DNA of 64,000 bases, from positions 50,320 through 114,319 of the forward strand of contig JBBDWR010000011.1 in assembly GCA_040902745.1 (NCBI GenBank). Reading direction: 5' to 3'. Of the stretch, positions 14,308 through 49,750 are shown in pieces; position 1 is the stretch's first letter, and each line of letters opens with the position of its first letter. The stretch comes from Actinomycetota bacterium. GTDB taxonomy: Bacteria; Actinomycetota; UBA4738; HRBIN12. The translations under genes and the position numbers were made by a program. Under the pieces are notes generated by a model that saw only the letters and a list, made by a program, of their open reading frames with translations, was not told the DNA's origin and ran no database searches.

Positions 14308-14437
14308 ACCGCGAGGATACGAGGCGGCGGGATTTTCGTACTCACCGGTGATGAGCCGATGCTGGGGTGATTGCTCGCGGATCGACCGTGCACGTTGAGG
14401 CGACCGGCCCGCACCGCTCGATCCGGCGTAGATCCGG

Positions 14438-20512: not shown

Positions 20513-21118
20513 GTGGACGCGTTGTCATCGGGAGAGCTGAAGCGGCACAAGCGACGGATCCGGGAGGAGATCGTGCGACGGCGGGACGCCGTGCCGGCGC
20601 CCGATCGCGATGCGGCAGCCTTGCGGGTCACCGATCTCGTGGCGAGGATCCTGTCCGATCACAGCGCCCGCATCGTGATGGTGTTCTGGTCGTTCGGCTC
20701 TGAGCTCCCGACGGAAGGGTTGATCGAGCGGCTCGCGGATGAAGGTCGGACGGTCTGCCTGCCGCGCCTCGCGAAGGGGCAGATGCGTGCCCGGACCTAT
20801 CGTCCGGGCGATCCGGTGGTCGAGACGTCGTTCGGGGCCTACGAACCCGCGGATGGCGCGATCGTCGAGGCGGCAGACCTCGATGCCGTGCTCGTGCCGG
20901 CCGTCGCGTTCGATCGCCTGGGTTTCCGGGTCGGCTACGGGGGCGGATTCTACGACCGCTTCCTCCGGGGGGTTCGGCCCGACGCTCTTCGCATCGGAAT
21001 CGGGCTCGCGGCCCAGCGCGTCGAACAGGTCCCCCGAGGGCACTTCGACCTGCCCGTTGACCTCGTCGTTACCGAATACGGGGTCGACGATGTCGGTGGG
21101 CGGCGCTCTTCGACTTGA
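20513..21118 (+). CDS. 5-formyltetrahydrofolate cyclo-ligase (MTHFS)
   Basis: 201 aa with the C-terminal GYGGGFYDR motif typical of MTHFS. Confidence 0.8.
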   Translation: MDALSSGELKRHKRRIREEIVRRRDAVPAPDRDAAALRVTDLVARILSDHSARIVMVFWSFGSELPTEGLIERLADEGRTVCLPRLAKGQMRARTYRPGDPVVETSFGAYEPADGAIVEAADLDAVLVPAVAFDRLGFRVGYGGGFYDRFLRGVRPDALRIGIGLAAQRVEQVPRGHFDLPVDLVVTEYGVDDVGGRRSST

Positions 21119-21194
21119 ACCGCCAGTCAAATCCCTGGTAGAACCCGTGTGCATCACGTCCCCACCCACCGCTGCACGAGGAGGCCGATCCGCG

Positions 21195-22295: not shown

Positions 22296-22334
22296 GCGCG
22301 TTCGTATCGGCGAGACGAACGAAGGGAAACCCAG

Positions 22335-23489: not shown

Positions 23490-25160
23490 TCAGAACAAGC
23501 CAACCGTGCGGCCGTCGGTGTCGATGTCGACCTTCTGGAACGCGGGGGTTCTGCCGAGCCCCGGCATCCGCTGCATGTCGCCGCAGAGCACCACCACGAA
23601 TCCCGCACCGGCACTGGGAACCACGGATCGCACCGGGAGCCAAAAGCCCCGTGGGCGGTTGAGCAGGGTCGGGTCATGCGAGAGGGACAGGTGGGTTTTG
23701 GCCATACAGACGGGGAAGGTCCCGAATCCGAGAGCGTCCATCCGCACGATGTCCTTGCGGGCCTGGGGAAGGAGATCCACGCCCTGTGCTCCGTAGAGCT
23801 GGGTTGCGATCGCCTCGATCTGCTCGGTGATCGGCGTTCCGTTCGGCGTGAGGTGCGAGAAGGTGTTCGGCTGTTCGCACGCCTCGACGACCGCGTTCGC
23901 GAGGGTCACCGCACCGTCTCCGCCGTCGGCGAATCCCTCGTTGACGACGACGGTCTGTGCTCCGGCGGCGGTTGCGAGCCGTTCGATCAGTTCGATCTCC
24001 GCGGGCGTGTCGGTCGGGAACCGGTTGATCGACACCACGCACGGGAGTCCATAGCGCTTCACGATCTCGATGTGGGCGGTCAGGTTGTCCATGCCGTCGC
24101 GCAGCGCGTTCAGATCCTCCGTGCCGAGGTCTTCGAAGCGCTTGCCACCGTGAGACTTCGTGGCGCGCACCGTCGTCACCAGCACCGCGGCGCTCGGCGC
24201 GAATCCGCCGACTCGGCACACGATGTCGCAGAACTTCTGGAACCCGAGATCTGATGCGAAGCCCGCCTCCGTGACCACGTAGTCCGCGAGCTTGAGGGCG
24301 ATGCGATCCTCGATGATGGAGTTGTTCGCGTGGGCGATGTTGCCGAACGGGCCGGCGTGTAGCAGCACGGGCTGGTGTTCAAGCGTCTGCACGAGGTTGG
24401 GCTTTATCGCGTCCTTCATGACCACGGTCATCGCCCCGGCGGCCTGAAGATCCTCCGCGGTGACCGGCTTGCCGTCGCGCGTCTCGGCGACCACGATCCT
24501 GCCGAGTCGGTCCCGCAGATCCCGCAGATCGTTCGCGAGGGCGAGGATCGCCATGATCTCCGATGCCGCAGTGATCACGAAGGAGTTTTCGCGGGGAACC
24601 CCGTGCGTCTTGCCCCCGAGACCGACGACCGTGTTACGCAGCTCGCGGTCGTTCATGTCCATCGCGCGCGGCCAAGTGATCGTTGCCGGATCGATGTCGA
24701 GCAGGTTGCCGTGGTACAGCGACGCGTCGAGGGCCGCGGCAAGGAGATTGTGTGCGGCCGTGACCGCGTGGAAGTCCCCGTTGAAGTGGAGATTGATCTC
24801 CTCCATCGGGACCACCTGTGCGAATCCACCGCCGGTGCCACCGCCTTTGATTCCGAAGACGGGGCCCATGCTCGGCTCGCGCAGGCAGAGCATCACGTCC
24901 TTGCCGATCTTCCCGAGGCCCTGAGTGAGCGATACGGACGTGGTCGTCTTGCCTTCTCCGGCCTTCGTAGGGGTGATCGCCGTCGTGATGACGAGTTTGC
25001 CGTCGGGGCGGTCGGCCAGGCGTTCGAGCGCGGAGAGTTGGATCTTGGCCCTGGAGGCGCCGTAGGGCTCGACCTCGTCGGGGAGCAGTCCCGCTTCCCG
25101 GGCAACGTCGGTGATGGGGCGAAGCTCCGCCTCCTGCGCGATCTCCAGTCCGCTCTTCAT
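23490..25160 (-). CDS. fhs: Formate-tetrahydrofolate ligase (10-formyl-THF synthetase)
   Basis: 556 aa from MKSGLEIAQ with the FTHFS signatures PTKAGEGKTTT and the GGGFAQVVPM region. The upstream 62 codons of the track ORF are an artifact. Confidence 0.9.
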   Translation of the reverse strand: MKSGLEIAQEAELRPITDVAREAGLLPDEVEPYGASRAKIQLSALERLADRPDGKLVITTAITPTKAGEGKTTTSVSLTQGLGKIGKDVMLCLREPSMGPVFGIKGGGTGGGFAQVVPMEEINLHFNGDFHAVTAAHNLLAAALDASLYHGNLLDIDPATITWPRAMDMNDRELRNTVVGLGGKTHGVPRENSFVITAASEIMAILALANDLRDLRDRLGRIVVAETRDGKPVTAEDLQAAGAMTVVMKDAIKPNLVQTLEHQPVLLHAGPFGNIAHANNSIIEDRIALKLADYVVTEAGFASDLGFQKFCDIVCRVGGFAPSAAVLVTTVRATKSHGGKRFEDLGTEDLNALRDGMDNLTAHIEIVKRYGLPCVVSINRFPTDTPAEIELIERLATAAGAQTVVVNEGFADGGDGAVTLANAVVEACEQPNTFSHLTPNGTPITEQIEAIATQLYGAQGVDLLPQARKDIVRMDALGFGTFPVCMAKTHLSLSHDPTLLNRPRGFWLPVRSVVPSAGAGFVVVLCGDMQRMPGLGRTPAFQKVDIDTDGRTVGLF

Positions 25161-25323
25161 GCTTGGCGGTCCCCTTCGTCTGAATGGCCGTTCAACTGGT
25201 TCGGACGATACAACCCTGGCGGAATGGCTCCAAACGTGACACCCGTGAGAACGACCGTGGGTCAGGCCGCCGCGCAGGCAGGGGCGGGCGCGGCCTGCGG
25301 CCGGGGTAGACCCCGAGCGGCGT

Positions 25324-26205
25324 ATGGACCCTCGCGGTTGCCGCACCTACCCTGGAGAGATGGCCGCCACCGAACCGCTGCGCAGGAACGTTGCACGCAC
25401 CAAGATCGTCGCCGTCAACGCAGGCGTGCGGTCGGAGCGGCCCGACACGCTCGCGGCCGAAGAGCCGATGGAGATCCGCGCGGGCGGTCCCGGCCAGGAC
25501 ACCGGTTCGGTTGCCGTCACGATGCGCACGCCCGGTGGCGATTTCGAACTCGCCGTCGGGTTCCTGTTCACCGAGGGCCTGATCCGCGGGCGCGACGAGA
25601 TCGATCGGGTCGCATATTGCGACGACGTCGGACCGGACGAACAGCGCTACAACATCGTGACCGTTCGGCTCGCCCATGCCTTCGACACCGAGTCGGTCCG
25701 CAGGAACTTCTACGCCTCGTCGAGTTGCGGTGTCTGTGGCAAGGCATCGATCGACGACATCCAGGTGCGCTGCGCTCCGGTCGCACCGGGACCGCAGGTC
25801 GAGGGCTCGATCATCGCCGGACTCCCCGATGCGCTCCGCCGGGCACAGCCGGTGTTCGACAAGACCGGTGGCTTGCATGCTGCGGGGTTGTTCGGCGTCG
25901 ACGGCGGCCTGATCAGTCTGCGCGAGGATGTCGGGCGGCACAACGCGGTCGACAAGGTCATCGGTGAGCAGCTGCTGGCCGGCACGGTACCGCTGGCCGA
26001 GCGCATCCTTCAGGTTTCGGGTCGAGTCAGCTTCGAGATCGTGCAGAAGGCCGCGGTTGCCGGGATCCCGGTGATCTCGGCGGTGAGTGCGCCGTCGAGC
26101 CTGGCGGTCGAGGCCGCCGAGGGCTTCGGCATGACCGTCGTTGGCTTCGTGCGCGACGATCGGTTCAATGTCTACTCTCACCCCGAACGCATCGGGACCA
26201 CCTGA
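25324..26205 (+). CDS. fdhD: Formate dehydrogenase accessory sulfurtransferase FdhD
   Basis: FdhD family (SSCGVCGK active-site Cys motif, GRHNAVDK). The alternative start ATG at 25360 has an adjacent GGAGAG. Confidence 0.8.
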   Translation: MDPRGCRTYPGEMAATEPLRRNVARTKIVAVNAGVRSERPDTLAAEEPMEIRAGGPGQDTGSVAVTMRTPGGDFELAVGFLFTEGLIRGRDEIDRVAYCDDVGPDEQRYNIVTVRLAHAFDTESVRRNFYASSSCGVCGKASIDDIQVRCAPVAPGPQVEGSIIAGLPDALRRAQPVFDKTGGLHAAGLFGVDGGLISLREDVGRHNAVDKVIGEQLLAGTVPLAERILQVSGRVSFEIVQKAAVAGIPVISAVSAPSSLAVEAAEGFGMTVVGFVRDDRFNVYSHPERIGTT

Positions 26206-26350
26206 GGTCTCTGGGCGGTCATACGGTCGACCCCCGCCCGGCGGGGTGCGACCAAGGGTCATGGCCGAGGTCCGGATCCCATTTGAACGGGGGTTTAGAA
26301 TCGTGGAGCAACCGGCCGATGCCGGTTGGACATCTCGGAAAGGAGCGCCG

Positions 26351-28282
26351 ATGCCGAACGGGCTCGCGCGACTCACGGAGCCGATGGTTCGCGAGAACGG
26401 CGAGCTGCGCGTCGTCCCCTGGGAGGTGGCCCTGGACCGGGCCGCCGAGGGGCTGCGCGCGGCGACCGATGCGAACGGCGGGGACGGAGTCGGCCTGTTC
26501 AGCTGCTCGAAGGCCACCAACGAGATGAACTTCGTTGCTCAGAAGTTCATCCGCCAGGCCCTTCGCAGCAACAACATCGATAGCTGTAACCGCACCTGAC
26601 ACGCACCTTCGGTCGTCGGTCTGGCGACCGTGTTCGGGGCAGGTGGTGGCACAAGTTCATACGAGGAGGTCGAACACACGGACCTCGTGATCCTCTGGGG
26701 ATCGAATGCGCGAGAGACGCACCCGATCTTCTTCCATCACGTCCTCGCCGGGATCCACAACGGTGCGCGGCTGTTCGCCGTGGATCCTCGGCGCACCTCC
26801 TCGGCCGAATGGGCCGATCTCTGGCTGGGGATCGACGTCGGTACCGACGTCGCGTTGTCGAACACGATGGCGAGGGAGATCATCGCGAGCGACTTGCACG
26901 ACAAGACGTTCATCTCGCGGGCGACCAGCGGGTTCGCCGCGTACGAGAAGAGCGTCGAGGACTGGACGCTCGACCGAGGGGCGGCCGTTACCGGCGTCCC
27001 GGCGGAGGTGATCCGGGAGGCCGCCCACGCGTACGCACGCGCGGACCGCGCGATGATCTGCTGGACGCTCGGGATCACCGAGCACCACAACGCGGTCGAC
27101 AACGTGCTCGCGTTGATCAACCTCGGCCTGCTGACCGGTCACGTCGGCACCTACGGCAGCGGACTCAATCCGCTTCGCGGACAGAACAACGTTCAGGGCG
27201 GTGGAGACATGGGCGCGATCCCGAACAAGCTCCCCGGGTTCCAGGACCTCGAGCGAGATCCGGCCGCGCGCGAGCGGTTCGAGCGCGCGTGGGGGGTTCC
27301 GATCGCTCCGAAGTATGGCTGGCACCTGACGCAGATGTTCGAGGCGATGGAGCGTGGCGAACTGACGGCTGTTTACGTGATCGGGGAGAATCCCGCGAGT
27401 TCAGAGGCCGACATGCATCGGGCCCGCAAGCTGCTGTCCAACCTCGACACCCTGATCGTGCAAGACATCTTCATGACGAAGACGGCGGAGATGGCTGATG
27501 TGGTGCTGCCCGCCTCAGCCTCGTGGGCCGAGACCGAGGGGACGGTGACCAACTCAGAGCGCCGGGTGCAGCGTGTTCGCAAGGCGCTCGACCCTCCCGG
27601 GAACGCACGCGACGACGTCTGGATCATCAACCAGCTCGCGAACCGGCTCGGACTGAGCTGGGGTGAGGTGACGCCGCATGCCGCGTGGGACGAACTCCGC
27701 ACCCTGAGCCCGATGCACGGCGGGATGAGCTGGAAGCGGCTCGAGGAGGAGGGCGGGCTCCAGTGGCCCTGCCCGGACGAAGAGCATCCCGGGACCCTCT
27801 TCCTGCACGAACGGCTCTGGGAGGAGGATCCCGCTGCGCGAGGCGAGCCCGCACCGTTCAGCATCACGATCGACTCCGCGCCCGTCGACGAGCTGACAGA
27901 TGAGTATCCGCTGCGGCTGACGACGGGACGGCGCCTGACCGACTACAACACGGGCGTGCAGACGGGTGGATTCTCCTCACCCCTGCGTCGGCAGGAGTCC
28001 GTCGACATCTCGCCCGAGGATGCGCGAGACCTCGGTGTGGCCGAGGGGGAGATCGTTCGCGTGACCTCTCGGCGGGGGACGGTCGACGCGCCGATCCGGA
28101 TCGACACGGTCCTGCGGCCGGGGCTGATCTTCATGACGTTCCACTTCCCCGAAGAGGTGGAGACGAACAAGCTCACCATCGACGCCACCGATCCCAAGTC
28201 CGGAACCGCCGAGTTCAAGGCGGCGGCGGTGCGGATCGACAAGTTGCCGGACGTGGTTGCCGCCGGCGGGGGCGGATCGTAG
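26351..28282 (+). CDS. fdhA: Formate dehydrogenase Mo-bisPGD catalytic subunit; probable selenocysteine at an in-frame TGA (26597-26599); lacks the N-terminal Fe4S4 domain
   Basis: The ATG is preceded by the RBS GGAAAGGAG. The translation across the TGA reads CNRT-U-HAPSVVGL, which aligns with E. coli FdhF CARV-U-HGPSVAGL. The downstream frame continues as molybdopterin oxidoreductase domains to 28282. The ORF track splits this gene into 26141..26599 and 26630..28282. Confidence 0.8.
26597..26599 (+). other. In-frame UGA, predicted selenocysteine codon
   Basis: Its position corresponds to the Sec/Cys active-site residue of FDH-alpha. Confidence 0.65.
26610..26630 (+). other. SECIS-like hairpin (CGGUCG-UCGGUCUGG-CGACCG)
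   Basis: A 6-bp stem with a 9-nt loop containing GGUC starts 11 nt after the UGA. This is the usual place for a bacterial SECIS. Confidence 0.45.
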
Positions 28283-28301
28283 TGCCCGAGCGGCAGGGGG
28301 C

Positions 28302-30236
28302 GTGTTGGACCTCCAGCTGACCGACGCGCGCGCCACCGTGGAGGAGCGCGCGGCAGTCGACGCGCTGCTCGGACCGCCCGAAACGCCGTGGGACGGCGGC
28401 GAGCGCGATGCGTACGGCGTCCGTGTTTCTCGAACCGGCCGCGAAGCGAGGGAACAACGCCACCTCCTGCTCCCCGCTCTGCACGCCGTGCAGGATCGGA
28501 TCGGGTGGATCAGCGAAGGCGCGTTGAACTACGTCTCGATCCGGCTGACCGTTCCTCCCGCCGAGACGTTCGGAGTCGCCAGCTTCTACGCGCTGTTCGC
28601 TCTGCAGGAGCGCCCGCCGACCGTGGTCCACATCTGCGACGACATCGCCTGTGGATCTTCGGGAGCGGAGCGTCTCTGCGGAGAGATGGAGCGGCTGATC
28701 GGTCCCGCAGGCACACCCACCACCGACGGGGGCACGACCTGGCAGCGCAGCCCGTGTCTCGGCCTATGCGAGCAGGCCCCCGCCGCGCTGGTGCAGCGAG
28801 CGGGGATCGGCGTGACCGACCGGTCGATCGGCTGCGCGCGCGCCGAGGACGTCGTTGCGGCGATCACGTCCCGAGCCGACGAGATCGGCCTCGGTGCCGA
28901 CGTCGCGACGATCGCGCCGCAGACCGCAGACGAGAGCAGGTCCGAACTTCGGCTGCTGCGCCGGGTGGGTGTCGTCGACCCCGGATCCCTCGACAGCTAC
29001 CGAGCCGAAGGAGGGTACGAAGCCCTTCGGATGGCGGTCGAGATGGGCCCGGGCGGCGTCATCCGAGAGCTCAAGGACGCGAGGCTGATGGGCCGCGGCG
29101 GGGCTGCGTTCCCGACGGGGGTCAAGTGGGAGGCCGTGGCGTCGCAGGCGAGTCGCCCGCACTACTTCATCTGCAACGCGGACGAGTCCGAGCCCGGAAC
29201 CTTCAAGGACCGTGTCCTGATGGAGCACGATCCGTTCGCATTGATCGAGTCGCTCACGATCGCCGGATACACCACGGCGTCGGAGCACGGGTCGATCTAC
29301 ATCCGAGGGGAGTATCCGCTCGCCCAGGCGCGACTGCGCCATGCGATCGATGAAGCACGTGAACGCGGGTATCTCGGTGACGACGTGATGGGGGAAGGGT
29401 TCACCTTCGACATCGAGGTGCGCCGCGGAGCCGGCGCCTACATCTGCGGCGAGGAAACGGCATTGCTGAACTCGATCGAAGGCAAGCGCGGCGAACCTCG
29501 AAGCAAGCCACCGTTCCCGGTTTCCCGCGGCCTGTTCGGCAAGCCCACAGGGATCAACAACGTCGAGACGCTCGTCAACGTACTGGAGATCCTCCGGATC
29601 GGAGGCCCGGCATACGCGCAGATCGGCACAGAAGGATCCACCGGCCCGCGGCTGTTCTGCCTGTCGGGCACGGTGGAACGACCCGGACTGTACGAGGTCC
29701 CGTTCGGTGCCACGCTCCGCGACCTGATCGAGCTCGCCGGCGGGGTGTCCGGCGGGCGGCCACTGAAGGCGGTTCTGCTGGGCGGTGCTGCCGGAGCGTT
29801 CGTCCGTCCGCAGGACCTGGATCTGAAGCTGACGTTCGAAGACACTCGGGCGGCGGGGGTCACCCTGGGGTCGGGCGTCGTGATGGCGTTCGACGACACG
29901 GTGTCGCTCCCGGAGGTGCTGCTGCGGATCGCGGCGTTCTTCCGCGACGAATCCTGCGGGCAATGTGTACCGTGCCGTGTGGGAACGGTGCGCCAGGAGG
30001 AGGCGCTCCAACGGATCGTCCGCGGCGCCCAGATCGGCTCGCGGGACGAGGAGCTCGCGCTTCTGGGCGAGATCGCGCAGGTGATGCGCGACGCCTCGAT
30101 CTGCGGGCTCGGTCAGACAGCAGCAAACGCGGTGGTCTCGGCGATCGAGCAGCTCGGTGTGTTCGAAGGCGCGGACACGTCGAACGGGAGTCAGGATCGC
30201 TCCGTCCCCACTCGTACCGAAGAACAGGAGTCCTAG
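28302..30236 (+). CDS. NAD(H)-binding formate dehydrogenase diaphorase subunit, NuoE-like/NuoF-like fusion (FdsG-FdsB)
   Basis: The N-terminus is a thioredoxin-like 2Fe-2S domain (CDDIACGSSG...C). It is followed by NuoF motifs (GRGGAAFPTG FMN site, GAGAYICGEETAL NADH site, ESCGQCVPCR 4Fe-4S). The GTG at 28302 follows AGGGGG. The alternative TTG at 28257 overlaps the previous gene. Confidence 0.85.
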   Translation: MLDLQLTDARATVEERAAVDALLGPPETPWDGGERDAYGVRVSRTGREAREQRHLLLPALHAVQDRIGWISEGALNYVSIRLTVPPAETFGVASFYALFALQERPPTVVHICDDIACGSSGAERLCGEMERLIGPAGTPTTDGGTTWQRSPCLGLCEQAPAALVQRAGIGVTDRSIGCARAEDVVAAITSRADEIGLGADVATIAPQTADESRSELRLLRRVGVVDPGSLDSYRAEGGYEALRMAVEMGPGGVIRELKDARLMGRGGAAFPTGVKWEAVASQASRPHYFICNADESEPGTFKDRVLMEHDPFALIESLTIAGYTTASEHGSIYIRGEYPLAQARLRHAIDEARERGYLGDDVMGEGFTFDIEVRRGAGAYICGEETALLNSIEGKRGEPRSKPPFPVSRGLFGKPTGINNVETLVNVLEILRIGGPAYAQIGTEGSTGPRLFCLSGTVERPGLYEVPFGATLRDLIELAGGVSGGRPLKAVLLGGAAGAFVRPQDLDLKLTFEDTRAAGVTLGSGVVMAFDDTVSLPEVLLRIAAFFRDESCGQCVPCRVGTVRQEEALQRIVRGAQIGSRDEELALLGEIAQVMRDASICGLGQTAANAVVSAIEQLGVFEGADTSNGSQDRSVPTRTEEQES

Positions 30237-30239
30237 ACG

Positions 30240-31286
30240 ATGTCCAGGGTGATGCTGGCTCCGCCCAAGCGACTGATCGACATCGAGGTCGACGGTGCGA
30301 CGGTCCGCGTGCCCGAGGGCTCCACGCTGCTGGATGCGCTGCGCACCGAGGGGGTGGACACGCCCACGCTGTGTTACCTCGAGAACCTGACACCGGTGAA
30401 TGCGTGTCGCGTATGTGTTGTCGAGGTGGAGGGTGCTCGCACCCTGGTCCCTTCGTGCGCCCGCCAGGCTGAGGCGGGGATGAAGGTTCGAACCGATTCC
30501 GAGCGCGTGCGGACGAGCCGCAGGATGGTCTTCGAGTTTCTGGCCTCCAGCGTGGACCTCTCCCTCGCGGGGGAACAGGTCCAGGGGTGGATGTCCGCCT
30601 ACGGCGTGGAGCCGGACCGCTACGGCCCGAGCGCCGAGCCGGCTCCGCTGGGCGAACGCGAGGCCCGCATCCCCGGGCACCACCACGGGTCCGAGGGGGA
30701 AGCGGCCGAGACCGTCGCACAGCCGATCAAGGTGGACAACGATCTGTACGTCCGGGAGTACTCGCGGTGCATCCTCTGCTACAAGTGCGTCGAGGCGTGC
30801 GGTGTCGACGCACAGAACACGTTCGCGATCGCGGTCGCCGGCCGGGGCTTCGATGCGCGGATCTCCACCGAGTTCGACGTCACGCTGCCCGACTCCGCGT
30901 GTGTGTACTGCGGCAATTGCATCGGCGTCTGCCCCACTGGAGCCCTGATGTTCAAGTCCGAGTACGACATGCGCGAAGCCGGCACCTGGGACGAGCAGGA
31001 ACAGACCGTGACCGAGACGATCTGCCCGTATTGCGGCGTCGGCTGTGATCTGTCGCTGCACGTCCAGGACAACGAGATCGTCAAGGTCACGAGCCCGCTC
31101 GACAACTCGGTCACACACGGGCATCTGTGCATCAAGGGCAGGTTCGGGTTCCAGTTCGTGCAGAACAGAGGCCCCAAGGACGCCGACGCCGGCGCCCGCG
31201 GAGTCGGACTCGTGGAGGGCCCCGCCGATCGGATCGCGCGTCAAGCCGGTACCGGAGACGACGCCCCGGAGACGACGCGAAGGTGA
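30240..31286 (+). CDS. Fe-S subunit corresponding to the N-terminal (NuoG-like) part of FDH-alpha: 2Fe-2S, two 4Fe-4S ferredoxin clusters and a molybdopterin-oxidoreductase Fe4S4 domain
   Basis: Cys motifs CYLENLTPVNACRVC, CILCYKCVEACG, CVYCGNCIGVCP and CPYCGVGCDLSLH. Confidence 0.85.
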   Translation: MSRVMLAPPKRLIDIEVDGATVRVPEGSTLLDALRTEGVDTPTLCYLENLTPVNACRVCVVEVEGARTLVPSCARQAEAGMKVRTDSERVRTSRRMVFEFLASSVDLSLAGEQVQGWMSAYGVEPDRYGPSAEPAPLGEREARIPGHHHGSEGEAAETVAQPIKVDNDLYVREYSRCILCYKCVEACGVDAQNTFAIAVAGRGFDARISTEFDVTLPDSACVYCGNCIGVCPTGALMFKSEYDMREAGTWDEQEQTVTETICPYCGVGCDLSLHVQDNEIVKVTSPLDNSVTHGHLCIKGRFGFQFVQNRGPKDADAGARGVGLVEGPADRIARQAGTGDDAPETTRR

Positions 31287-41842: not shown

Positions 41843-44224
41843 ATGCGACGCCCGCCTCTTGCTGCTCTGCTTGTCCTTGCGATCGGTGCTTTTGCGCTCG
41901 CGATCCCCCAGGCGTTCGGAGGCACGGGGACCTGCAAGACCAGCTCACCTCCGAGCTCGAGCGCCACGGTCGAAGTCTGCATCGCCCAACCCTCCGGGCT
42001 CGATCCCCTCGCGGACACCGTGCCGGTTGTCGTCACTGTGGACGTCTCGAACGGCCGGCCGGTGGACTCGGTCAACCTCCTGCTTGACGGAACGAAGACC
42101 GCGCAGGACGACCAGTCGCCGTACAGGTTCTTCATCCCCACGGACCTGTACGTCGATGGCCCTCACACGATCCAGGTGAATGCAAGCGTGCAGTTCGCGG
42201 TGCCCTTCACCACGCCGAAGACGCGCCTCCCGGTGACCTTCGACAACGGGAACGCGTCACCTCCTCCGCCGCGTACGGGGTTCGTGGCTCCCGGAGTCGC
42301 CGGGATGCAGCCGGCGATCGTCGGTGCCACCGGAGACGGAGCCGACGGCGGGGTACGGGCGGACGCTGTGATCGACGAGATCGTCTCGTGGGATCCTGAT
42401 CTGTTCTTGTACCTCGGCGACGTCTATGACAACGGGACGAACGAGGAGATGGCGAGCTGGTACGGGCAGCCCGGGCAGCGTTGGGCGACGATGCGAGATA
42501 TCACCGCCCCGACGATCGGAAACCACGAATACATCACTGCGAGCGGCCGGCCGTATTTCGACTACTGGGACGGGGTGCCGCACTTCTATGCCTTCAACGC
42601 GGGGGCGTGGCGGGTGATCGTGCTTGACACGATGAAGGCATTCAACGGCTACGCGGTCGGCTCCCCGCAGTACGAGTGGCTGGCCGACGAACTGATCGAC
42701 GACGAGCACGAGTGCACGCTCGTCAGCTTCCACCATCCTCGGTTCTCCGTGGGCAAGTACGAGGGGTCGCCCTGGCTGCAACCGCTGTGGGCGCTGATGG
42801 CCGACAACGGCGTGGACATCGCCGTCACCGGTCACGACCACAACTACCAACGCTGGAAGCCGCTCCGGGCCTCGGGGAACTTCGATAGCAAAGGCACGCG
42901 GCAATTCGTTGCGGGAACAGGCGGCCACGAGTCTTACGCGATCCAGCGCGACGACAGTCGCGTGGTGGAAGCAGTGGGGATGGTGGACGGCGCGATCCGG
43001 TTCGAGCTGGAGCCGGGCAGGGCGGAGTTCTCTTTCGTCACGTCCAACGGCCAGCAATTGGACTCCGGTCAGTTCTCCTGCTCGCCCACGATCGACCGGC
43101 AGCCTCCGACCGCCCCGGCGATGCTCGCGGCCACCGCCGTGGCGCCGGATCGCATCGACCTGGAGTGGGACGCGGCGTCCGACGATCGCGGTGTGACGGG
43201 ATACGAGGTCTTCCGTGATGGTGTCCTGTTGGACACCACCGATGGAGCGACGACGACCTACGCGGATACGGGCGTGTCCGCGGACCAGACCTACCACTAC
43301 CGCGTCCGCGCGTTCGACGAGGCAGGCAACCGTGGCGAGCGCTCACCGCAAGCTGAAGCGACGACGCCCGCCGGTGACGTCGACCCTCCGAGCGTGCCGA
43401 CCGGGGTCACTGCCGATGCTCCGACCCCCTTCCGCGTCGATCTGTCGTGGAACGCGTCGAACGACGACGTCGGTGTCGACGCCTACGACGTGTATCGCAA
43501 CGGGACGCTCGTTGCCGGCGACCTTCCTCCGATCCCCGATCCGGTGTGGTCCGACGACGATGTCACACCCGGTGCGACCTACGACTACACCGTGGTCGCG
43601 CGCGATCAAGCGGGTAACGCGTCGGCGCCGGGAGGACCAGCCACCGTCACGTTGTCGGCCGGGCTGTTCTCCGACGGGTTCGAGAGCGGAACACTGTCCG
43701 CCTGGACCAACAGTGACCACGCCTCCGTGGTTGACGGGATCGGCCTGCGCGGGACCCACGGCGTGGCACTGGTCTCGACGGGTACCACCCGCGCGTACGT
43801 GTACAAGACTCTCCCGACTCCCAGGAAGAACACGTATACGAAGGTGTCGTTCGAGGTGGAGGAGCAGGGCCCGCACACGATCGACCTGCTTGCGATCCGT
43901 ACCGCCGCGGGGGCTGGGATCGTCACGGCGATCGCTCGCGCCGACGGGACGCTCGCGCTCTTGGACGAACGCACTTCCACCGTGATCGGGTCCGCCAGAC
44001 AGGTGGGGACGGGGGTCCATGACCTACAGGTGCGCACATCGGTGGCCGGCTCGGAGTCGAAGCTCGTCGTGTGGCTCGACGGGCAGAAGGTCAACGCCCT
44101 GAGTCAGCCACGCCCGCTTGGGACGACATTCGCCGGCCGCGTCCGGCTCGGAGACGCGACCATCGGGCGGACCCTGGAACTCGTGATGGACGAGGTACAG
44201 GTGCGAACCAAACAGATCCCGTGA
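41843..44224 (+). CDS. Secreted calcineurin-like metallophosphoesterase with two fibronectin type III domains and a C-terminal beta-sandwich domain
   Basis: Signal peptide, the phosphoesterase motifs GDVYDNGT, GNHEY and GHDHNYQR, then two FN3 repeats (DLEWDAASDDRGVTGYEVFRDG and DLSWNASNDDVGVDAYDVYRNG). Confidence 0.75.
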   Translation: MRRPPLAALLVLAIGAFALAIPQAFGGTGTCKTSSPPSSSATVEVCIAQPSGLDPLADTVPVVVTVDVSNGRPVDSVNLLLDGTKTAQDDQSPYRFFIPTDLYVDGPHTIQVNASVQFAVPFTTPKTRLPVTFDNGNASPPPPRTGFVAPGVAGMQPAIVGATGDGADGGVRADAVIDEIVSWDPDLFLYLGDVYDNGTNEEMASWYGQPGQRWATMRDITAPTIGNHEYITASGRPYFDYWDGVPHFYAFNAGAWRVIVLDTMKAFNGYAVGSPQYEWLADELIDDEHECTLVSFHHPRFSVGKYEGSPWLQPLWALMADNGVDIAVTGHDHNYQRWKPLRASGNFDSKGTRQFVAGTGGHESYAIQRDDSRVVEAVGMVDGAIRFELEPGRAEFSFVTSNGQQLDSGQFSCSPTIDRQPPTAPAMLAATAVAPDRIDLEWDAASDDRGVTGYEVFRDGVLLDTTDGATTTYADTGVSADQTYHYRVRAFDEAGNRGERSPQAEATTPAGDVDPPSVPTGVTADAPTPFRVDLSWNASNDDVGVDAYDVYRNGTLVAGDLPPIPDPVWSDDDVTPGATYDYTVVARDQAGNASAPGGPATVTLSAGLFSDGFESGTLSAWTNSDHASVVDGIGLRGTHGVALVSTGTTRAYVYKTLPTPRKNTYTKVSFEVEEQGPHTIDLLAIRTAAGAGIVTAIARADGTLALLDERTSTVIGSARQVGTGVHDLQVRTSVAGSESKLVVWLDGQKVNALSQPRPLGTTFAGRVRLGDATIGRTLELVMDEVQVRTKQIP

Positions 44225-44246
44225 GCGAGACCCCCTCGACGATCCG

Positions 44247-45293
44247 TCAGCGCAGCCAGGTCTGCATGATCGCCTTGCCGAAGTGGTAGCCGTACTTGAG
44301 CGATTTCGGCTTTTTGGATTTTCCTCCCTTGCGAGCCTCGATCGTGACCGGGACCTCGACGATCTTGGCGCGATGACGCAGCGCCTCGATCAGCACCTCG
44401 CTGGTCCAGAACTGATCCTGTTCGAGGACGAGTTTGCGCAGCAGCTCGGTGGTCGCGGCGCGGTACCCGGAGGAGATGTCGGTGATCCGCTGCCCCGTGA
44501 GGATCGTGGTCAGCCACGAGAAGAAGTGCACGCCGACGTGACGGATTGCACTCTCCTTCTCGAACTCGCCCAGCAGCCGGGACCCGTTCACGTAGTCCGC
44601 CCGACCCGACAGGATCGGCTCGATCATGACCGGTAACTCCTCGGGCATGTGCTGACCGTCGGCATCGATCGTGACGACGATGTCCGCGCCGAGCTTGATC
44701 GCGATGTCGTATCCGACGCGCAGCGCCAACCCGCCTCCGCGCCGGATCGGATTGCTAGCGACGAGCGCGCCCCCCGCCCGCGCGACCTCGGCTGTGTCGT
44801 CCTCGGAGCCGTCGTCGACCACGATCGAGATCACCCGGTACCCGCTGAGATCACGGGGGATCCTGCGCAGGACCTCGGCGATGTTCTCCGCCTCGTTCAG
44901 TGCGGGCGAGACCGTCACAATCTTCTTGCCGGACGGCAGGGCGTTCGCACTCGCCCAATCGAACTCCCGTTGCGCGAGGGCCTCGACGAGCAACCGGATG
45001 CTGCGTTCGTTCGAATCGGCGGTCGCTTGCGTGCGTAGCAGCAACGCGAACAGGATCGCGACCGCCACGAACAGCACCGCGTCGAGCCGACGCCCGTTGC
45101 CCGGCCGGAAGTTGAAGGCGTCGAAGAGGAAATTGAACAGGTTGGGATCGAGGGCGAGGATCACGACTCCAGTCGCGATCGCCCAGCCGATGATCAAGCT
45201 GAGTCGAGAGATCTGGCGGCGGCGGTAGCGGACGACGGCCGCCGCGAAGATCGCGACCGCGAAGATCGCGCCGAGGATCCGAAGCGCGCTCAT
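44247..45293 (-). CDS. Membrane-anchored GT2 glycosyltransferase (Dpm1/polyprenyl-phosphate glycosyltransferase-like)
   Basis: N-terminal TM helices, then a GT-A domain with VVDDGSEDDT and TIDADGQ (DxD). It starts 13 nt downstream of sqdB. Confidence 0.8.
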   Translation of the reverse strand: MSALRILGAIFAVAIFAAAVVRYRRRQISRLSLIIGWAIATGVVILALDPNLFNFLFDAFNFRPGNGRRLDAVLFVAVAILFALLLRTQATADSNERSIRLLVEALAQREFDWASANALPSGKKIVTVSPALNEAENIAEVLRRIPRDLSGYRVISIVVDDGSEDDTAEVARAGGALVASNPIRRGGGLALRVGYDIAIKLGADIVVTIDADGQHMPEELPVMIEPILSGRADYVNGSRLLGEFEKESAIRHVGVHFFSWLTTILTGQRITDISSGYRAATTELLRKLVLEQDQFWTSEVLIEALRHRAKIVEVPVTIEARKGGKSKKPKSLKYGYHFGKAIMQTWLR

Positions 45294-45306
45294 CGGGCCA
45301 GGTCGG

Positions 45307-46488
45307 TTAGCCGGCCGGCTGCGCCGACGGCGCCGGCGGCTTCCAGCGCGTCTTCGGATCGATCCGGCCGGGGATCACGCGCTCCTTGTAGGCCGCCATC
45401 ACGTCGAACATGTGCTCGATCAACGAGTCCGAGAGGAGACGCGGCTTCAGCCCGAGGTCCAGCAGCTTGGTGTGCGTGGGGTTGTAGTAGTGCTCTTCCA
45501 TCTCGACACGGGGATTCTCCGTGTGTTCGACGACGACCTCGAGCCCGTGCTCTTTGCCGGCTTGCTGAACGAGATGGGCGAGTTCGCCCACCGAGAACTG
45601 CTCGGTGAACTGGTTGAACACCCGGAATTCGCCGGCTTCAGCCGGGTTCACCGTTGCCAGCTCCACGCACTGCAGCGTGTCGACGATGTTGAGGTAGCCC
45701 CTCGTCTGACCACCGGCGCCGTAGACGGTCAAGGGATGGCCGATCACCGCCTGGAGACAGAAGCGGTTGAGCGCCGTGCCGAAGACTTCGTCGTAGTCGA
45801 AGCGCGTGAGCAGGCGGTCGTCGAGCTTGGTCTCGTCGGTCTCGATGCCGTAGACGACCCCCTGATTCAGATCGGTTGCGCGCAATCCCCAGATCCGGCA
45901 GGCGAAATGTACGTTGTGCGAGTCGTGCACCTTCGACAGGTGGTACATCGAACCCGGGAGCTTGGGGAAGGGGAGGGTGTCGGTGCGACCGTTGTGGTCG
46001 ATCTCGATGAAACCTTCCTCGATGTCGATGTTGGGGGTGCCGTACTCGCCCATAGTGCCGAGCTTCACGAGGTGCGCGTCCGGCGTGATGTCGCGCATCG
46101 CCCACAGGATGTTGAGGGTGTTGACGACGTTGTTCGTCTGCGTGAAGACGGCGTGTTCGCGGTCGATCATGGAGTAGGGGGCACTCGGCATCTCACCGTA
46201 GTGAACGATCGCCTCAGGTCGGAAGTCGGTGAACAGCTGCTCAACCACCGGCCACTCGGTCAGGTCTCCCTCCGTCGCCCCAACCGTGTAGCCGGAGACC
46301 GCTTGCCAGGAGTCAACCCGTTCGGGCAAGGAGGCACCGATCGGCGTGAGCGAGTCCGTCCCGGCCTCGGTATGGGCTCGACGGCGCAGGTAGTTGTCCA
46401 CCACGTGCACCTCGTGTCCGCGGGCAGAGAAGTGCATCGCCGTGGGCCACCCCAGGTAGCCATCTCCTCCGAGGATCAAGATCCGCAT
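45307..46488 (-). CDS. sqdB: UDP-sulfoquinovose synthase
   Basis: About 60% identity by eye to plant SQD1 across the whole length (ILGGDGYLGW, HYGEMPSAPYSMIDR, LGTMGEYGTPNIDIEEG, HLSKVHDSHN, GQTRGYLNI, FRVFNQFTEQFSV, PRVEMEEHYYNP). Confidence 0.85.
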   Translation of the reverse strand: MRILILGGDGYLGWPTAMHFSARGHEVHVVDNYLRRRAHTEAGTDSLTPIGASLPERVDSWQAVSGYTVGATEGDLTEWPVVEQLFTDFRPEAIVHYGEMPSAPYSMIDREHAVFTQTNNVVNTLNILWAMRDITPDAHLVKLGTMGEYGTPNIDIEEGFIEIDHNGRTDTLPFPKLPGSMYHLSKVHDSHNVHFACRIWGLRATDLNQGVVYGIETDETKLDDRLLTRFDYDEVFGTALNRFCLQAVIGHPLTVYGAGGQTRGYLNIVDTLQCVELATVNPAEAGEFRVFNQFTEQFSVGELAHLVQQAGKEHGLEVVVEHTENPRVEMEEHYYNPTHTKLLDLGLKPRLLSDSLIEHMFDVMAAYKERVIPGRIDPKTRWKPPAPSAQPAG

Positions 46489-46633
46489 GTCTTGGTTGTC
46501 CTTTCGCGCTTGCTCGAGAGGAAGTGGCCGTATGGTAGCAAGCCACCTGGCTCGTTCGTGCAGGTGGCGCAGCGGTTCCGTGTGACCCTCGCGCCTCGCC
46601 GGCCTCGGGCGCCGCCGGGCCGCGGCAGAGCGG

Positions 46634-46667
46634 AAAAAAGAAGGACCGCCCCGCAGGACGGTCCTTC
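46634..46667 (-). terminator. Rho-independent terminator
   Basis: A perfect 9-bp stem GAAGGACCG/CGGTCCTTC with a 10-nt loop. On the minus strand it is followed by TTTTTT, 60 nt downstream of the stop of the 46727..47518 gene. Confidence 0.65.
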
Positions 46668-46726: not shown

Positions 46727-47518
46727 TCAGCGGCGGTACGCGCGAGTGTCGTCGCCGCTCATCGGCGTCCGGTCTGTGCCATCCACGGCGCCTTCGTGCT
46801 CCACACGTGCGCGCTCGACGAGGTACCGGTCAGCCTTGCGGTGGTAGCGCTCGCCCCACAGAGCCCCGAGCATCCCTCCGATGAACGCCACGACGATCGC
46901 GACGATGCCGCTGATCACGGCGCCGGCGGTGACCTGGTCGGTCGTGAACCAGCGATCGAACCAGTTGGGAAGATCGGCCTGCACGAGCACGTTGTACTCG
47001 GCCGCGGCCCAAGCGCCCAGGGCCGTGAGGATCGCGCCCAGGGCGAGGAACCAGACGGCGACCATCGCGCCGTTCCGGAGTCCGTCATACCGCGCGATCC
47101 GACCGGCGACCCATCCGCCGATCGCGAACGCGAGGAACAAGACGGCGATCCCCGCGATCACGCTGCCGATCGTCAACTCGTTGCCGGCGGCATCTTCGAC
47201 GCCGGTTTCATAGGCGATGCCGCCGATCGCCGCTCCGACCAGGCCGCCGAGTACCAGCGTCGCGGCTAGCGCCGTGAGCATCCCGGCGAGTGAGCCTCCG
47301 AATGAGATCCCACCGAAGCGGCTGCGCGCCTCGAGACGCACCACGCGCTCATCTCGGGCGCTCGGGCGCTCGGTTACGGGTCGGTCGCTGCGGGTGGGTG
47401 CTGGGTTCGGCGGATAGCTCGACGCCGCCGGGTCTGTGCGGTAGCTCACCTCGCCGGTCGTGGGGTCGCGGTAGGTCTCGGTGGATACGCCATCGTTGCG
47501 CGGCTCCATAGCGATCAC
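46727..47518 (-). CDS. Membrane protein (hypothetical)
   Basis: Disordered N-terminal region followed by 4-5 predicted TM helices rich in G and A. Confidence 0.5.
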   Translation of the reverse strand: MIAMEPRNDGVSTETYRDPTTGEVSYRTDPAASSYPPNPAPTRSDRPVTERPSARDERVVRLEARSRFGGISFGGSLAGMLTALAATLVLGGLVGAAIGGIAYETGVEDAAGNELTIGSVIAGIAVLFLAFAIGGWVAGRIARYDGLRNGAMVAVWFLALGAILTALGAWAAAEYNVLVQADLPNWFDRWFTTDQVTAGAVISGIVAIVVAFIGGMLGALWGERYHRKADRYLVERARVEHEGAVDGTDRTPMSGDDTRAYRR

Positions 47519-47612: not shown

Positions 47613-48866
47613 TCAGGTGAGGAGTGAGAGCTCGTCGAGGATTCGGTCGACCTCGCTGGCACTCGTGTAGTGACACAGTCCGATCCGGACGCAACCGCCC
47701 GCCTCCGGCCACAGGCCGAGGCGCTGCATCAGCTCGATCGCGTAGTAGTGACCGTCCCACGTGAAGATGCCGCGCTCGCCCAGCGATCTTGTGGTTTCGA
47801 TCGGGAGCTGCTCGCCGACACGGATCGCGAAGGTCGGGACGCGCTCCTCAAGGCGTGCCGGGTCGCCGATCCCGTACAGGCGGACGTGATCCATCGCTGC
47901 GATCCCCGCAAGGAACCGCTGGGCCAGGATCCGCTCGTACGCGCCGATCGCTTCGAATGCCGCGAGGATGCGCGAGCGTCGATCGGGAGTTCCGCCGGCT
48001 CCGCCGTATGTGGCGCCGATCTGTGCGAGGTAGTCCACGGCAGCGACGAAGCCCGCCAGCCCCTCGTGGTTCGCGGTTCCCGTCTCCCAGCGATCGGGCG
48101 TGGCGTCGGATGCGGGACGGACCTTGTACGGGGTCCAGACCTCGAGCAGTTCGCGGCGGGCCCAGAGCACGCCGAGGTGAGGCCCGAAGAACTTGTACGG
48201 CGAGCACACAGCCAGGTCCGCGCCGATCGCACGGACGTCGTAGGCACGGTGAGGAGCGAACTGCACGCCGTCGACGCACACGAGCGCCTCGGTCGCGCGC
48301 GCCCTGCGAACGAGATCGGTGGCGGGCGTGATCGTGCCGACGGCGTTGGATGCGAGCGTGAAGGCGACCACCTTCGTGCGCTCGGTCAACGCCGCGTCGA
48401 ACGATCCCGGGTCGATCGTGAGGTCGTCATCCCGGACGTCGACCCAACGGATCGTCGCGCCGGCATCCTGTGCCGCCATCACCCACGGTCGGATGTTGCC
48501 GTCGTGGTCGAGCCTGGTCACGACCACCTCGTCTCCGGGTCCGAGCGTGCGCCCGATCGAGCGGGAGATCGCGAACAGCAGCGACGTCGAGTTCGGTCCG
48601 AAGACGATCTCACCGGGCTCGGCGTTGAGCAGATCCGCGGCCGCACGACGCGCCCCGGCGATCAGTTCGTCCGTTTCACGACTGGTCGCAAAGGTCCCGT
48701 GGGTGTTCGAGTTGGATCGCACGAGGTATCCCTGCATCGCTTGGAGCACCGTGTCGGGCACTTGCGACCCTCCCGGGGCGTCTGCGAACACACACGGGCG
48801 GCCGTCGAGTTCGCGCGCAAGTGCCGGGAACCTGGGGCGCAATGCGGAGAGATCGGCGACGTCCAC
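47613..48866 (-). CDS. Aminotransferase class V / cysteine desulfurase-like PLP enzyme (SufS/CsdA-like)
   Basis: The PLP-enzyme fold class V pattern starts near the LRPRFPAL N-terminus. I chose the GTG start (VDVADL). The longer track ORF extends to 49010. Confidence 0.7.
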   Translation of the reverse strand: MDVADLSALRPRFPALARELDGRPCVFADAPGGSQVPDTVLQAMQGYLVRSNSNTHGTFATSRETDELIAGARRAAADLLNAEPGEIVFGPNSTSLLFAISRSIGRTLGPGDEVVVTRLDHDGNIRPWVMAAQDAGATIRWVDVRDDDLTIDPGSFDAALTERTKVVAFTLASNAVGTITPATDLVRRARATEALVCVDGVQFAPHRAYDVRAIGADLAVCSPYKFFGPHLGVLWARRELLEVWTPYKVRPASDATPDRWETGTANHEGLAGFVAAVDYLAQIGATYGGAGGTPDRRSRILAAFEAIGAYERILAQRFLAGIAAMDHVRLYGIGDPARLEERVPTFAIRVGEQLPIETTRSLGERGIFTWDGHYYAIELMQRLGLWPEAGGCVRIGLCHYTSASEVDRILDELSLLT

Positions 48867-48940
48867 GGCTTCAGGGTGACCGAACCGAACCCAGCGTGGC
48901 AACTGCAGCGAGGCAGCTCCGGAGGTCCTAGGCTCTCGCC

Positions 48941-49750
48941 ATGAGCGCTCCGAAGGTGCAGAACCGCTCCGCCCGCCCGCCTGATGGCTCCGGCCGAGGT
49001 TTCGCGGCAACGACCCGGCACGTCATCGACGTGCTGCGAGGCCAGGACAGCTACTCGCTCGTCCTGCTGATGACCGTCGTCACGATCGCGTTCCTCGCCG
49101 GGACCAGCGACAGCGGATGGGAGTGGATCGTCGGCATCGCGCTGTTATGCGGGACGCTCCTCGTCGCACTGCACACCTCGGATGCCCGGCCCCGTACGTT
49201 CCGCTTCGCGGTGGGGATGACGGTGCTCGCGATCGCGCTGGCCGTGGTCGCATCCTCGACGGAGGGGCGTCCCGCGACGACGACCGTGGCGGCGATCGGA
49301 GCGGTGCTCGTTCTGCTGACGCCGATCGCGATGCTTCGGCGCGTGGCGCGCCATCCGGTCGTCAGCCTGCAGACCGTCCTTGCCGGGATCTCGATCTACC
49401 TGTTGGTGGGTCTGTTCTTCTCCTTCGTGTTCATGGTGGTCGCGAGGTCGAGTGTCGGGGGGTTCTTCGAGACGACCGGTTCGGGTGCGGTCGGGGACGG
49501 CACGACGGCGGACTACCTGTTCTTCAGCTTCGTCACGCTGACGACGCTCGGATACGGCAATCTCGTGCCCACGGGCGACCTCGGGAGGATGCTGGCGGTG
49601 CTGGAGGCGCTCCTGGGTCAGATCTACCTCGTGACGGTCGTGGCGCTACTCGTCGGAGGATTCGCGGGGGAGTTCCAGGCACGTCGGATCGCTCGGGTGG
49701 GATCGGGTGAGGATGCAGCCGACGTCGGGATGAAGTCCGTGCAGGAGTAG
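48941..49750 (+). CDS. Potassium channel family protein (2TM/P-loop)
   Basis: Selectivity filter TTLGYGN is flanked by TM helices. Confidence 0.75.
   Translation: MSAPKVQNRSARPPDGSGRGFAATTRHVIDVLRGQDSYSLVLLMTVVTIAFLAGTSDSGWEWIVGIALLCGTLLVALHTSDARPRTFRFAVGMTVLAIALAVVASSTEGRPATTTVAAIGAVLVLLTPIAMLRRVARHPVVSLQTVLAGISIYLLVGLFFSFVFMVVARSSVGGFFETTGSGAVGDGTTADYLFFSFVTLTTLGYGNLVPTGDLGRMLAVLEALLGQIYLVTVVALLVGGFAGEFQARRIARVGSGEDAADVGMKSVQE

Follow-up and report, generated by a model that had tools for sequence, protein, structure and literature searches.

A conserved sqdB–DUF2304-glycosyltransferase gene pair in Actinomycetota and its predicted role in lipid-linked sulfoquinovose synthesis

Introduction

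Sulfoquinovose (SQ) is treated as a sugar that derives from phototrophs, and reviews of its cycle take as their starting point the sulfoquinovosyl diacylglycerol (SQDG) formed by plants, algae, and cyanobacteria (PMC13436972). The locus described here raises the question of what an actinobacterium does with UDP-sulfoquinovose (UDP-SQ) when the gene of its apparent synthase, sqdB, is followed by a gene for a membrane-bound glycosyltransferase of family 2 (GT2) rather than by one for a sulfolipid synthase. Both genes are located in a stretch of 64,000 nucleotides (hereafter, the window) from an Actinomycetota assembly (GCA_040902745.1, contig JBBDWR010000011.1, positions 50,320 to 114,319). The original prediction, made from the letters of the window, had proposed that the pair forms a polyprenyl-phosphate-SQ intermediate for a cell-envelope glycoconjugate rather than SQDG, resembling the archaeal Agl3 situation, in which SQ goes into protein glycans.

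The best explanation, to which a little better than even confidence is attached, is that the GT2 protein is a polyprenyl-phosphate-sulfoquinovose synthase feeding extracytoplasmic glycosylation. In the proposed mechanism, SqdB would turn UDP-glucose and sulfite into UDP-SQ in the cytoplasm, a step well supported by homology. The inverting GT-A enzyme, tethered to the membrane by the three helices of its fused DUF2304 domain, would then move SQ from UDP-SQ onto polyprenyl monophosphate and yield polyprenyl-P-beta-sulfoquinovose, as suggested by family, fold, domain fusion, and genomic context. Finally, the lipid-linked SQ would be flipped and a polytopic glycosyltransferase would decorate a surface polysaccharide or glycoprotein, with the components of this last step lying outside the window. 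The active-site residues of SqdB, the class of the GT2 protein, and the pairing of the two genes in 83 of 83 loci agree with the original prediction, which gains strength from three further findings, namely the fusion to DUF2304, the conservation of the operon across the lineage, and the homologues in Archaea; it is still a prediction with respect to the product.

Identification of a probable UDP-sulfoquinovose synthase

The product of sqdB (393 aa, ATG start) had been described as matching plant and cyanobacterial SQD1/SqdB along its whole length, which was upheld by phmmer, with residues 2-384 aligning to residues 3-384 of Arabidopsis SQD1 (PDB 1qrr) at an E value of 8e-161 and 228 of 383 residues (59.5%) being identical. 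The NAD motif GxxGxxG was kept as GGDGYLG (residues 7-13), and the active-site check that the original prediction had proposed found T145, Y182, and K186, the triad of short-chain dehydrogenases/reductases (SDR), as well as H183, aligned with SQD1; these residues (Thr145/Tyr182/Lys186 and His183) are named in PMC4388408. In a family scan of 1.84 billion cluster representatives, from which the 150 best members were taken, nearly all of the 150 showed the catalytic pattern TYHK or SYHK. Moreover, the window SqdB shared much more of its sequence with SQD1 than with the Sinorhizobium meliloti homologue (40% identity), which stands in the canonical sqdB-GT8 arrangement, and close homologues are labelled UDP-sulfoquinovose synthase by JGI but not by PGAP.

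The possibility that the SQD1-like protein is another UDP-sugar 4,6-dehydratase or epimerase could draw on its PGAP name, which reads merely 'NAD-dependent epimerase/dehydratase family protein', and on the NCBIfam model NF041015, which matched it end to end (1-383 vs 1-384 of 384) with 486.9 bits, below the cut-off of 575. It could also draw on position 101, where the Arg of SQD1 is Pro in the window SqdB and in all 120 close homologues, since an Arg101Ala exchange inactivates Agl3 (PMC4388408). Among the 137 family representatives informative at this position, however, about 100 had Pro and 25 had Arg (as QR in 23), the latter including the top SQD1-like matches. Because Pro is the majority across the family representatives, Pro101 is the normal bacterial state and Arg101 is not family-defining, and the exchange was dropped as a disqualifier of SqdB. 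Against a dehydratase or epimerase also stand the end-to-end identity to SQD1, the intact triad with His183, and the scores of generic epimerases and dehydratases, which were more than 100 orders of magnitude worse. As such, a non-SQ function is very improbable, and the protein can with high confidence be regarded as a UDP-sulfoquinovose synthase by its sequence.

Many representatives of the SqdB family were 700-1100 aa long and carried intein/LAGLIDADG homing-endonuclease insertions (e.g., P0242, P0254, P0279, P0289, P0321, and P0363). The idea that these long proteins are SqdB-glycosyltransferase fusions was rejected because they carry inteins.

The DUF2304-GT2 fusion protein

The gene downstream of sqdB encodes a 348-aa protein (ATG start), which PGAP names 'DUF2304 family protein'. 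The N-terminal transmembrane helices and the polyprenyl-phosphate-sugar-synthase-like GT-A domain that had been noticed earlier were both found, and the helices turned out to be a DUF2304 domain, which had not been recognised. Hydropathy peaks near residues 12, 40, and 80 were accompanied in the AlphaFold (AF2) model by helices at residues 2-24, 30-59, and 68-110. The mean predicted local distance difference test (pLDDT) score of the model was 76, with values of 81-94 over most of the GT-A core. Owing to the three hydrophobic helices and the loop RYRRRQISR, the catalytic domain is likely to face the cytoplasm according to the positive-inside rule.

Comparison with 18 GT2 homologues revealed that D210, D212, G213, Q214, and H215 were invariant, with residue 211 being Ala in 15 and Ser in 3 of them. 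The motif DADGQH aligned with DADLQH of the dolichyl-phosphate mannose synthase (DPMS) of Pyrococcus furiosus and with DADLQN of ArnC, and SGY aligned with SGF of DPMS. The best NCBIfam matches were AglJ (2e-32), the haloarchaeal dolichyl-phosphate (Dol-P)-hexose transferase (8e-23), PpgS (3e-22), and ArnC (3e-10). A profile built from the 18 homologues, searched against all PDB sequences, hit DPMS (5mlz, 3e-17) first and then ArnC (1.6e-10), and Foldseek placed ArnC, DPMS, and GtrB closest to the AF2 model, at root-mean-square deviations (rmsd) of 2.9-3.4 Å. By both sequence and modelled fold, the protein appears to belong to the Dpm1/ArnC/GtrB/PpgS/AglJ group.

Proteins of the DUF2304 type have been linked to this kind of enzyme before. 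GacI of Streptococcus pyogenes, a GT2 protein, is found in a complex with the DUF2304 protein GacJ, which reduces the Km of GacI for undecaprenyl phosphate. Rv3632 likewise binds and stimulates the polyprenyl-P-GalNAc synthase PpgS, and natural DUF2304-GacI fusions have been reported (10.1101/180810).

An alternative is that the GT2 protein uses UDP-SQ but another acceptor, such as a lipid-linked oligosaccharide, a glycerolipid, or another lipid (giving a beta-linked sulfoglycolipid). A direct inverting GT2 would yield beta-SQ, as in the N-glycan of Sulfolobus (PMC8993221), and agl1, the membrane glycosyltransferase gene beside agl3, is predicted to act in this way, with SQ beta-linked to GlcNAc (PMC4388408). 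In addition, actinobacterial sqdB genes are found beside different GT2 genes in Pseudonocardia and Rhodococcus (described below), so SQ is routed in several ways. On the other side, the proteins that match best in sequence and fold are specifically monophosphate-polyprenol glycosyltransferases, DUF2304 partners have to date been described only alongside polyprenyl-phosphate (Pol-P)-N-acetylhexosamine (HexNAc) synthases, and the operon holds no further glycosyltransferases with which to build an oligosaccharide acceptor. A different acceptor is thus unlikely, at perhaps one chance in a handful, and transfer to polyprenyl monophosphate is preferred.

Operon structure and conservation of the gene pair

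Both open reading frames (ORFs) were found where they had been reported, together with the 13-nt gap between them; the two proteins have the accessions MEX2274556.1 and MEX2274557.1. Their third-position GC content (GC3) of 0.87-0.88 is of the coding type, in a window of 67% GC. The pair looks like a self-contained bicistronic unit because of the 13-nt gap, the Shine-Dalgarno-like element before sqdB, and the terminator-like hairpins that bracket the two genes (Table 1). A sigma-70-like promoter was looked for at the locus and none was seen, and an Rfam scan of 38-52 kb returned zero RNA families.

The GT2 protein was also searched for in a collection holding one genome per species, in which 237 encoding stretches matched, and the best 80 of these 237 were examined. 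Homologues at 66-88% identity numbered in the hundreds, nearly all of exactly 348 aa, and the best 80 stretches all came from uncultured Actinomycetota/Actinomycetes metagenome-assembled genomes or unclassified-bacterium assemblies. Across 84 loci, one of which was excluded as unassessable with only about 100 bases of upstream sequence, sqdB lay directly upstream of the GT2 gene on the same strand in 83 of 83, with similarly short spacing in, for example, L001 (sqdB end 7995, GT2 start 8001).

The surroundings of the pair, including thiE, thiL, the PASTA kinase gene, and the gene of a pyridoxal 5'-phosphate (PLP) enzyme, were largely syntenic across the lineage, which leaves room for a reading in which the adjacency is inherited synteny only: the GT2 would make an ordinary Pol-P-hexose or Pol-P-HexNAc, and SqdB would feed an unlinked SqdX or SqdD that makes SQDG as a phosphate-sparing lipid. 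Besides the shared neighbourhood, this reading can call on cyanobacteria in which sqdB and sqdX are unlinked (PMC13436972) and on haloarchaeal GT2 homologues that occur without sqdB. However, the pair stayed intact despite entirely different flanks in L006, L029, L052, L060, L065, L066, L071, and L077, and in five loci it also outlived an insertion, a gene for a secreted protein of the NosD/right-handed beta-helix type having come to lie between its two members. The spacing of 13 nt or less, or overlap, and the terminators that bracket the pair alone likewise speak against mere synteny, as do the recurrence of the pairing in Archaea and the lack of any SqdX/SqdD-like gene in the window or 80 flanking regions. 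Inherited synteny is accordingly an improbable account, a shade more so than a different acceptor, and a functional link between SqdB and the polyprenyl-phosphate glycosyltransferase is favoured.

Surface-glycan context in rearranged loci

In the rearranged loci, the genes around the pair suggest a surface-glycan setting. Membrane proteins of a new family (626-708 aa, 10-15 hydrophobic segments) adjoined the pair in L029, L052, L060, L065, L066, L033, and L042. In L029 and L052, the gene of this family overlapped the stop codon of the GT2 gene; it came after a NosD gene in L060, L065, and L066, and lay between the PLP enzyme gene and sqdB in L033 and L042. A G-x-D-x-P-x-Y-x-W motif in the first loop after helix 1 was invariant in this family, which matched no Pfam family and for which a profile search of PDB sequences gave nothing significant; the 64-kb window held no homologue. 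Furthermore, a Wzz/GNVR/ParA-type co-polymerase-kinase (BY-kinase) was encoded divergently upstream in L029, L060, and L065, and a WecA/MraY-type gene (PF00953) was present upstream in L071. As a candidate for the transferase acting on lipid-linked SQ, the 626-708-aa membrane protein would be the natural choice.

Haloarchaeal homologues

A tblastn search of plasmids with SqdB revealed sqdB homologues in varied settings. The clusters of Natrinema versiforme and Haladaptatus pallidirubidus in which sqdB homologues occurred also encoded 'DUF2304 family proteins' of 344-354 aa, which shared both domains of the window GT2 and aligned with it over the full length at 35-36% identity (E 5e-63 and 2e-56). 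The gene was followed by two GT39 (PMT-type GT-C) genes in Haladaptatus, with NosD-domain genes nearby, and by an S-adenosylmethionine methyltransferase gene in Natrinema. In Haloterrigena turkmenica it came after an sqdB-like gene and two SDR genes, in Halosimplex rubrum it lay two genes from AglB, and in Halorhabdus and Halococcus it headed agl-type clusters without sqdB. Judging from these sequences, the DUF2304-GT2 family would comprise carrier-lipid glycosyltransferases encoded at loci for surface glycosylation in both Bacteria and Archaea, with the sugar set by context and not by membership of the family. The archaeal parallel drawn in the original prediction is one of real homology, in that clusters for glycosylation in haloarchaea encode full-length GT2 homologues, in some cases beside sqdB-like genes; half of the homologues examined lacked sqdB. 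An N-glycan with methyl-sulfoquinovose, the pathway of which is unknown, has been described in Haloferax volcanii (PMC8241124), and a link between it and the haloarchaeal DUF2304-GT2 and sqdB-like genes is speculation.

SQDG route and other partners of sqdB

In the same plasmid search, the genes adjacent to sqdB differed widely among organisms. A GT8 gene (SqdD type) follows sqdB directly in S. meliloti and a GT4 gene in Microbulbifer, both like the window arrangement in having a glycosyltransferase gene at that place, and a PAPS reductase gene lies beside sqdB in Pelagovum. On a plasmid of Pseudonocardia autotrophica (L085), sqdB (58% identity) is accompanied by a divergent GT2/GT21-like gene and a gene for a MurJ-like flippase, and flanked by that of a cysteine-synthase-like enzyme; the GT2 encoded there was considered as a relative of the window GT2 and proved not homologous. 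On a plasmid of Rhodococcus qingshengii (L086), sqdB (43% identity) lies beside genes for a BcsB-like protein, a cellulose-synthase-like processive GT2, an alkyl sulfatase, and a SulP transporter. The Pseudonocardia and Rhodococcus loci, which are from cultured actinobacteria, suggest further uncharacterised SQ-containing products.

The original prediction had stated that no sulfolipid synthase of the SqdX (GT4) or SqdD (GT8) type accompanies the pair. Neither the 64-kb window nor the 80 related flanking regions contained a GT8 (SqdD type) or an SqdX/SqdD-like gene. The window does hold a single GT4 gene, overlooked earlier (14438-15613, 30 kb away), the product of which matched a GT4 encoded next to sqdB elsewhere with 27% identity over 198 aa (E 1.6e-8); it was rejected as a hidden SqdX orthologue, the similarity being that of GT4 proteins in general. 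The statement therefore stands for the window and not for the whole genome.

Several observations weigh against the synthesis of polyprenyl-phosphate-SQ by the pair, in addition to the missed NF041015 cut-off. First, the GT2 protein scored under every named equivalog cut-off (AglJ, 112.7 vs 325; PpgS, 79.1 vs 370; and a further one, 80.5 vs 375), and because all of them were missed it would form a distinct, unnamed subfamily, with both donor and acceptor inferred. Second, Foldseek also paired it with GpgS, a soluble retaining enzyme, at a clearly worse rmsd. Third, neither a flippase nor a GT-C enzyme was seen within the 64 kb of the window. Fourth, adjacency in the relatives could largely reflect vertical synteny, and adjacency alone is weak evidence. 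Fifth, sqdB is absent beside half of the examined haloarchaeal homologues (Halorhabdus, Halosimplex, and Halococcus), and because such homologues occur without sqdB, the DUF2304-GT2 family is not intrinsically SQ-specific. Finally, 'rather than SQDG' is not established genome-wide, since the absence of sulfolipid synthase genes covers 64 kb and sqdB and sqdX can be unlinked, as in the cyanobacteria mentioned above, so that an unlinked sqdX may lie elsewhere in the genome.

Comparison with known systems and implications

GacI/GacJ of S. pyogenes and PpgS/Rv3632 of Mycobacterium tuberculosis are like the window protein in combining a GT2 GT-A domain with a three-helix DUF2304 protein. They act on polyprenyl monophosphate, as is predicted for the window protein, and their products are used outside the membrane by the GT-C enzymes GacL and Rv3779 (10.1101/180810). 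In the window protein, DUF2304 forms the N-terminal part of a fusion, whereas GacJ and Rv3632 are partner proteins, and the donors of GacI and PpgS are UDP-GlcNAc and UDP-GalNAc, whereas the neighbour of the window GT2 is a UDP-sulfoquinovose synthase. The GtrA/GtrB/GtrC and ArnC/ArnT systems share the fold and the DADxQ motif and include the closest structures, but GtrB and ArnC have C-terminal transmembrane helices instead of an N-terminal DUF2304 domain.

The Gtr, Arn, GacIJKL, and PpgS/Rv3779 systems follow a three-component logic, in which a cytoplasmic Pol-P-sugar synthase, a flippase, and a periplasmic polytopic transferase act together. The window pair would, as a prediction, represent glycan modification of this carrier-lipid kind with a sulfonated sugar, for which there is no precedent; no description of a sulfonated sugar in a Gtr/Arn-type three-component system, or of polyprenyl- or dolichyl-phosphate sulfoquinovose, was found in the searchable literature.

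In Sulfolobus acidocaldarius, the SqdB homologue Agl3 (with the predicted Agl1) likewise feeds a protein-linked glycan and not SQDG, and a membrane glycosyltransferase gene is adjacent. However, the identity to SQD1 is only about 40% for Agl3, compared with 59.5% for the window SqdB, and SQ is thought to be added to the dolichyl-pyrophosphate-linked oligosaccharide straight from UDP-SQ, a Dol-P-SQ intermediate never having been proposed. The haloarchaeal DUF2304-GT2 clusters differ in their dolichol carrier and in encoding two more SDR enzymes, along with several GT4/GT2 genes. The SQDG pathways, SqdB-SqdX in cyanobacteria and plants and SqdB-SqdD-SqdC in Sinorhizobium and Rhodobacter, share the first enzyme, but they proceed through retaining GT4 or GT8 enzymes to alpha-SQDG, unlike the inverting Dpm1-like GT2 and the predicted carrier-linked sugar of the window.

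It is a tentative proposal, standing at rather less than an even chance, that hundreds of uncultured soil and groundwater Actinomycetota species and many haloarchaea make polyprenyl- or dolichyl-phosphate SQ, a lipid intermediate not described before, from which SQ would be loaded onto polysaccharides or glycoproteins of their surfaces via new 10-15-helix transferases. If true, soils would receive SQ that does not depend on photosynthesis, from a large, unrecognised source in a widespread non-phototrophic lineage, and SQ on bacterial surfaces would provide an anionic, phosphate-free charge. It would also extend three-component glycan-modification systems to a sulfonated sugar and offer candidate genes and a candidate origin for the orphan methyl-SQ N-glycan pathway of Haloferax. 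The operon provides a concrete two-gene construct for seeking polyprenyl-P-SQ.

Table 1. Features of the sqdB-GT2 locus and of related loci. Positions refer to the window or, where a locus label (L) is given, to that locus.
Feature	Position	Strand	Evidence or remark
sqdB, very probable UDP-sulfoquinovose synthase (SQD1/SqdB/Agl3 family, EC 3.13.1.1)	45307..46488	-	Full-length SQD1 homology
DUF2304-GT2 fusion, predicted polyprenyl-phosphate sulfoquinovosyltransferase	44247..45293	-	Pfam PF10066 + PF00535
DUF2304 membrane domain, aa 4-110, three transmembrane helices	44964..45284	-	PF10066, E 1.4e-9
GT-A catalytic domain (Glycos_transf_2), aa 129-286	44436..44909	-	PF00535, E 3.9e-16
DXD motif D210-A-D212 in DADGQH	44658..44666	-	Codons GAT GCC GAC
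Intercistronic spacer, sqdB stop to GT2 ATG	45294..45306	-	13 nt, read in sequence
Shine-Dalgarno-like GAAAGGA	46499..46505	-	10 nt 5' of sqdB ATG
Strong terminator-like hairpin	46640..46667	-	12-bp stem, 8 GC, T-run; closes upstream gene, ~150 nt before sqdB
Weaker terminator-like hairpin	44214..44233	-	14 nt past GT2 stop codon
263-aa membrane ORF	46727-47518	-	Coding-type GC3, several hydrophobic segments; between PLP enzyme and sqdB
Cysteine-desulfurase-like class V PLP enzyme, VC1184 family	47613..49010	-	TIGR01976, 450 bits, cut-off 352
626-708-aa membrane proteins	L029 7044-9062 and 9077-11023; L052 7044-8924; L060 8331-10367; L065 8457-10439 and 10442-12496; L033 2677-4803; L042 2698-4758		
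NosD gene between sqdB and GT2	L027 3185-4330; L030 4897-5910; L038 4857-5876; L046 4912-5934; L061 5213-5743		
NosD gene just past GT2	L060 7136-8200; L065 7085-8197		

Neighbouring genes and other observations in the window

The genes around the pair in the window are unrelated to it and comprise thiE, thiL, a PASTA Ser/Thr kinase gene, and a convergent gene for a secreted metallophosphoesterase, followed on the other side of sqdB by the 263-aa membrane ORF and then the cysteine-desulfurase-like PLP enzyme. The 263-aa ORF matched no Pfam or NCBIfam family and had no counterpart in the 84 related loci. This lineage-specific ORF and the strong hairpin separate the PLP enzyme gene from sqdB in the window. 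In 46 of the 64 related loci in which this could be assessed, the gene immediately 5' of sqdB, in the same orientation, coded for a VC1184-family PLP enzyme. Relatives of the enzyme in the PDB include cysteine desulfurases, a 'cysteine sulfinate desulfinase', and M. tuberculosis 3cai ('possible aminotransferase'), and a role of the VC1184-type enzyme in supplying a sulfur donor or sulfite, e.g., as a cysteine sulfinate desulfinase, is speculative. In Pelagovum and Pseudonocardia, too, sqdB is flanked by genes of sulfur metabolism, namely those of the PAPS reductase and the cysteine-synthase-like enzyme mentioned above. An SqdB::Aminotran_5 fusion (P0361) was considered as support for a sulfur-donor role and set aside as a weak lead, its PLP domain being unrelated in sequence to the window enzyme.

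Elsewhere in the window, genes for glycine-cleavage-T-like (GCV_T) proteins were present, two of them in tandem with a third weak match (20739-23438, + strand, and 13429-14916, - strand). Together with the nearby genes for formate-tetrahydrofolate (THF) ligase (23490-25346) and 5-formyl-THF cyclo-ligase (20513-21118), they make up a one-carbon metabolism cluster. In addition, a formate-dehydrogenase-type molybdopterin subunit (26257-28282, + strand) was broken by an in-frame TGA at 26597-26599 within the motif DSCNRT-[TGA]-HAPSVVG, and mechanical ORF calling shows only 26630-28282 of it. Genes for FdhD (25324-26205), a NuoE/F-like subunit (28257-30236), and a separate Fer2/Fe4S4 subunit (30240-31286) lie close by, and the in-frame TGA probably encodes selenocysteine.

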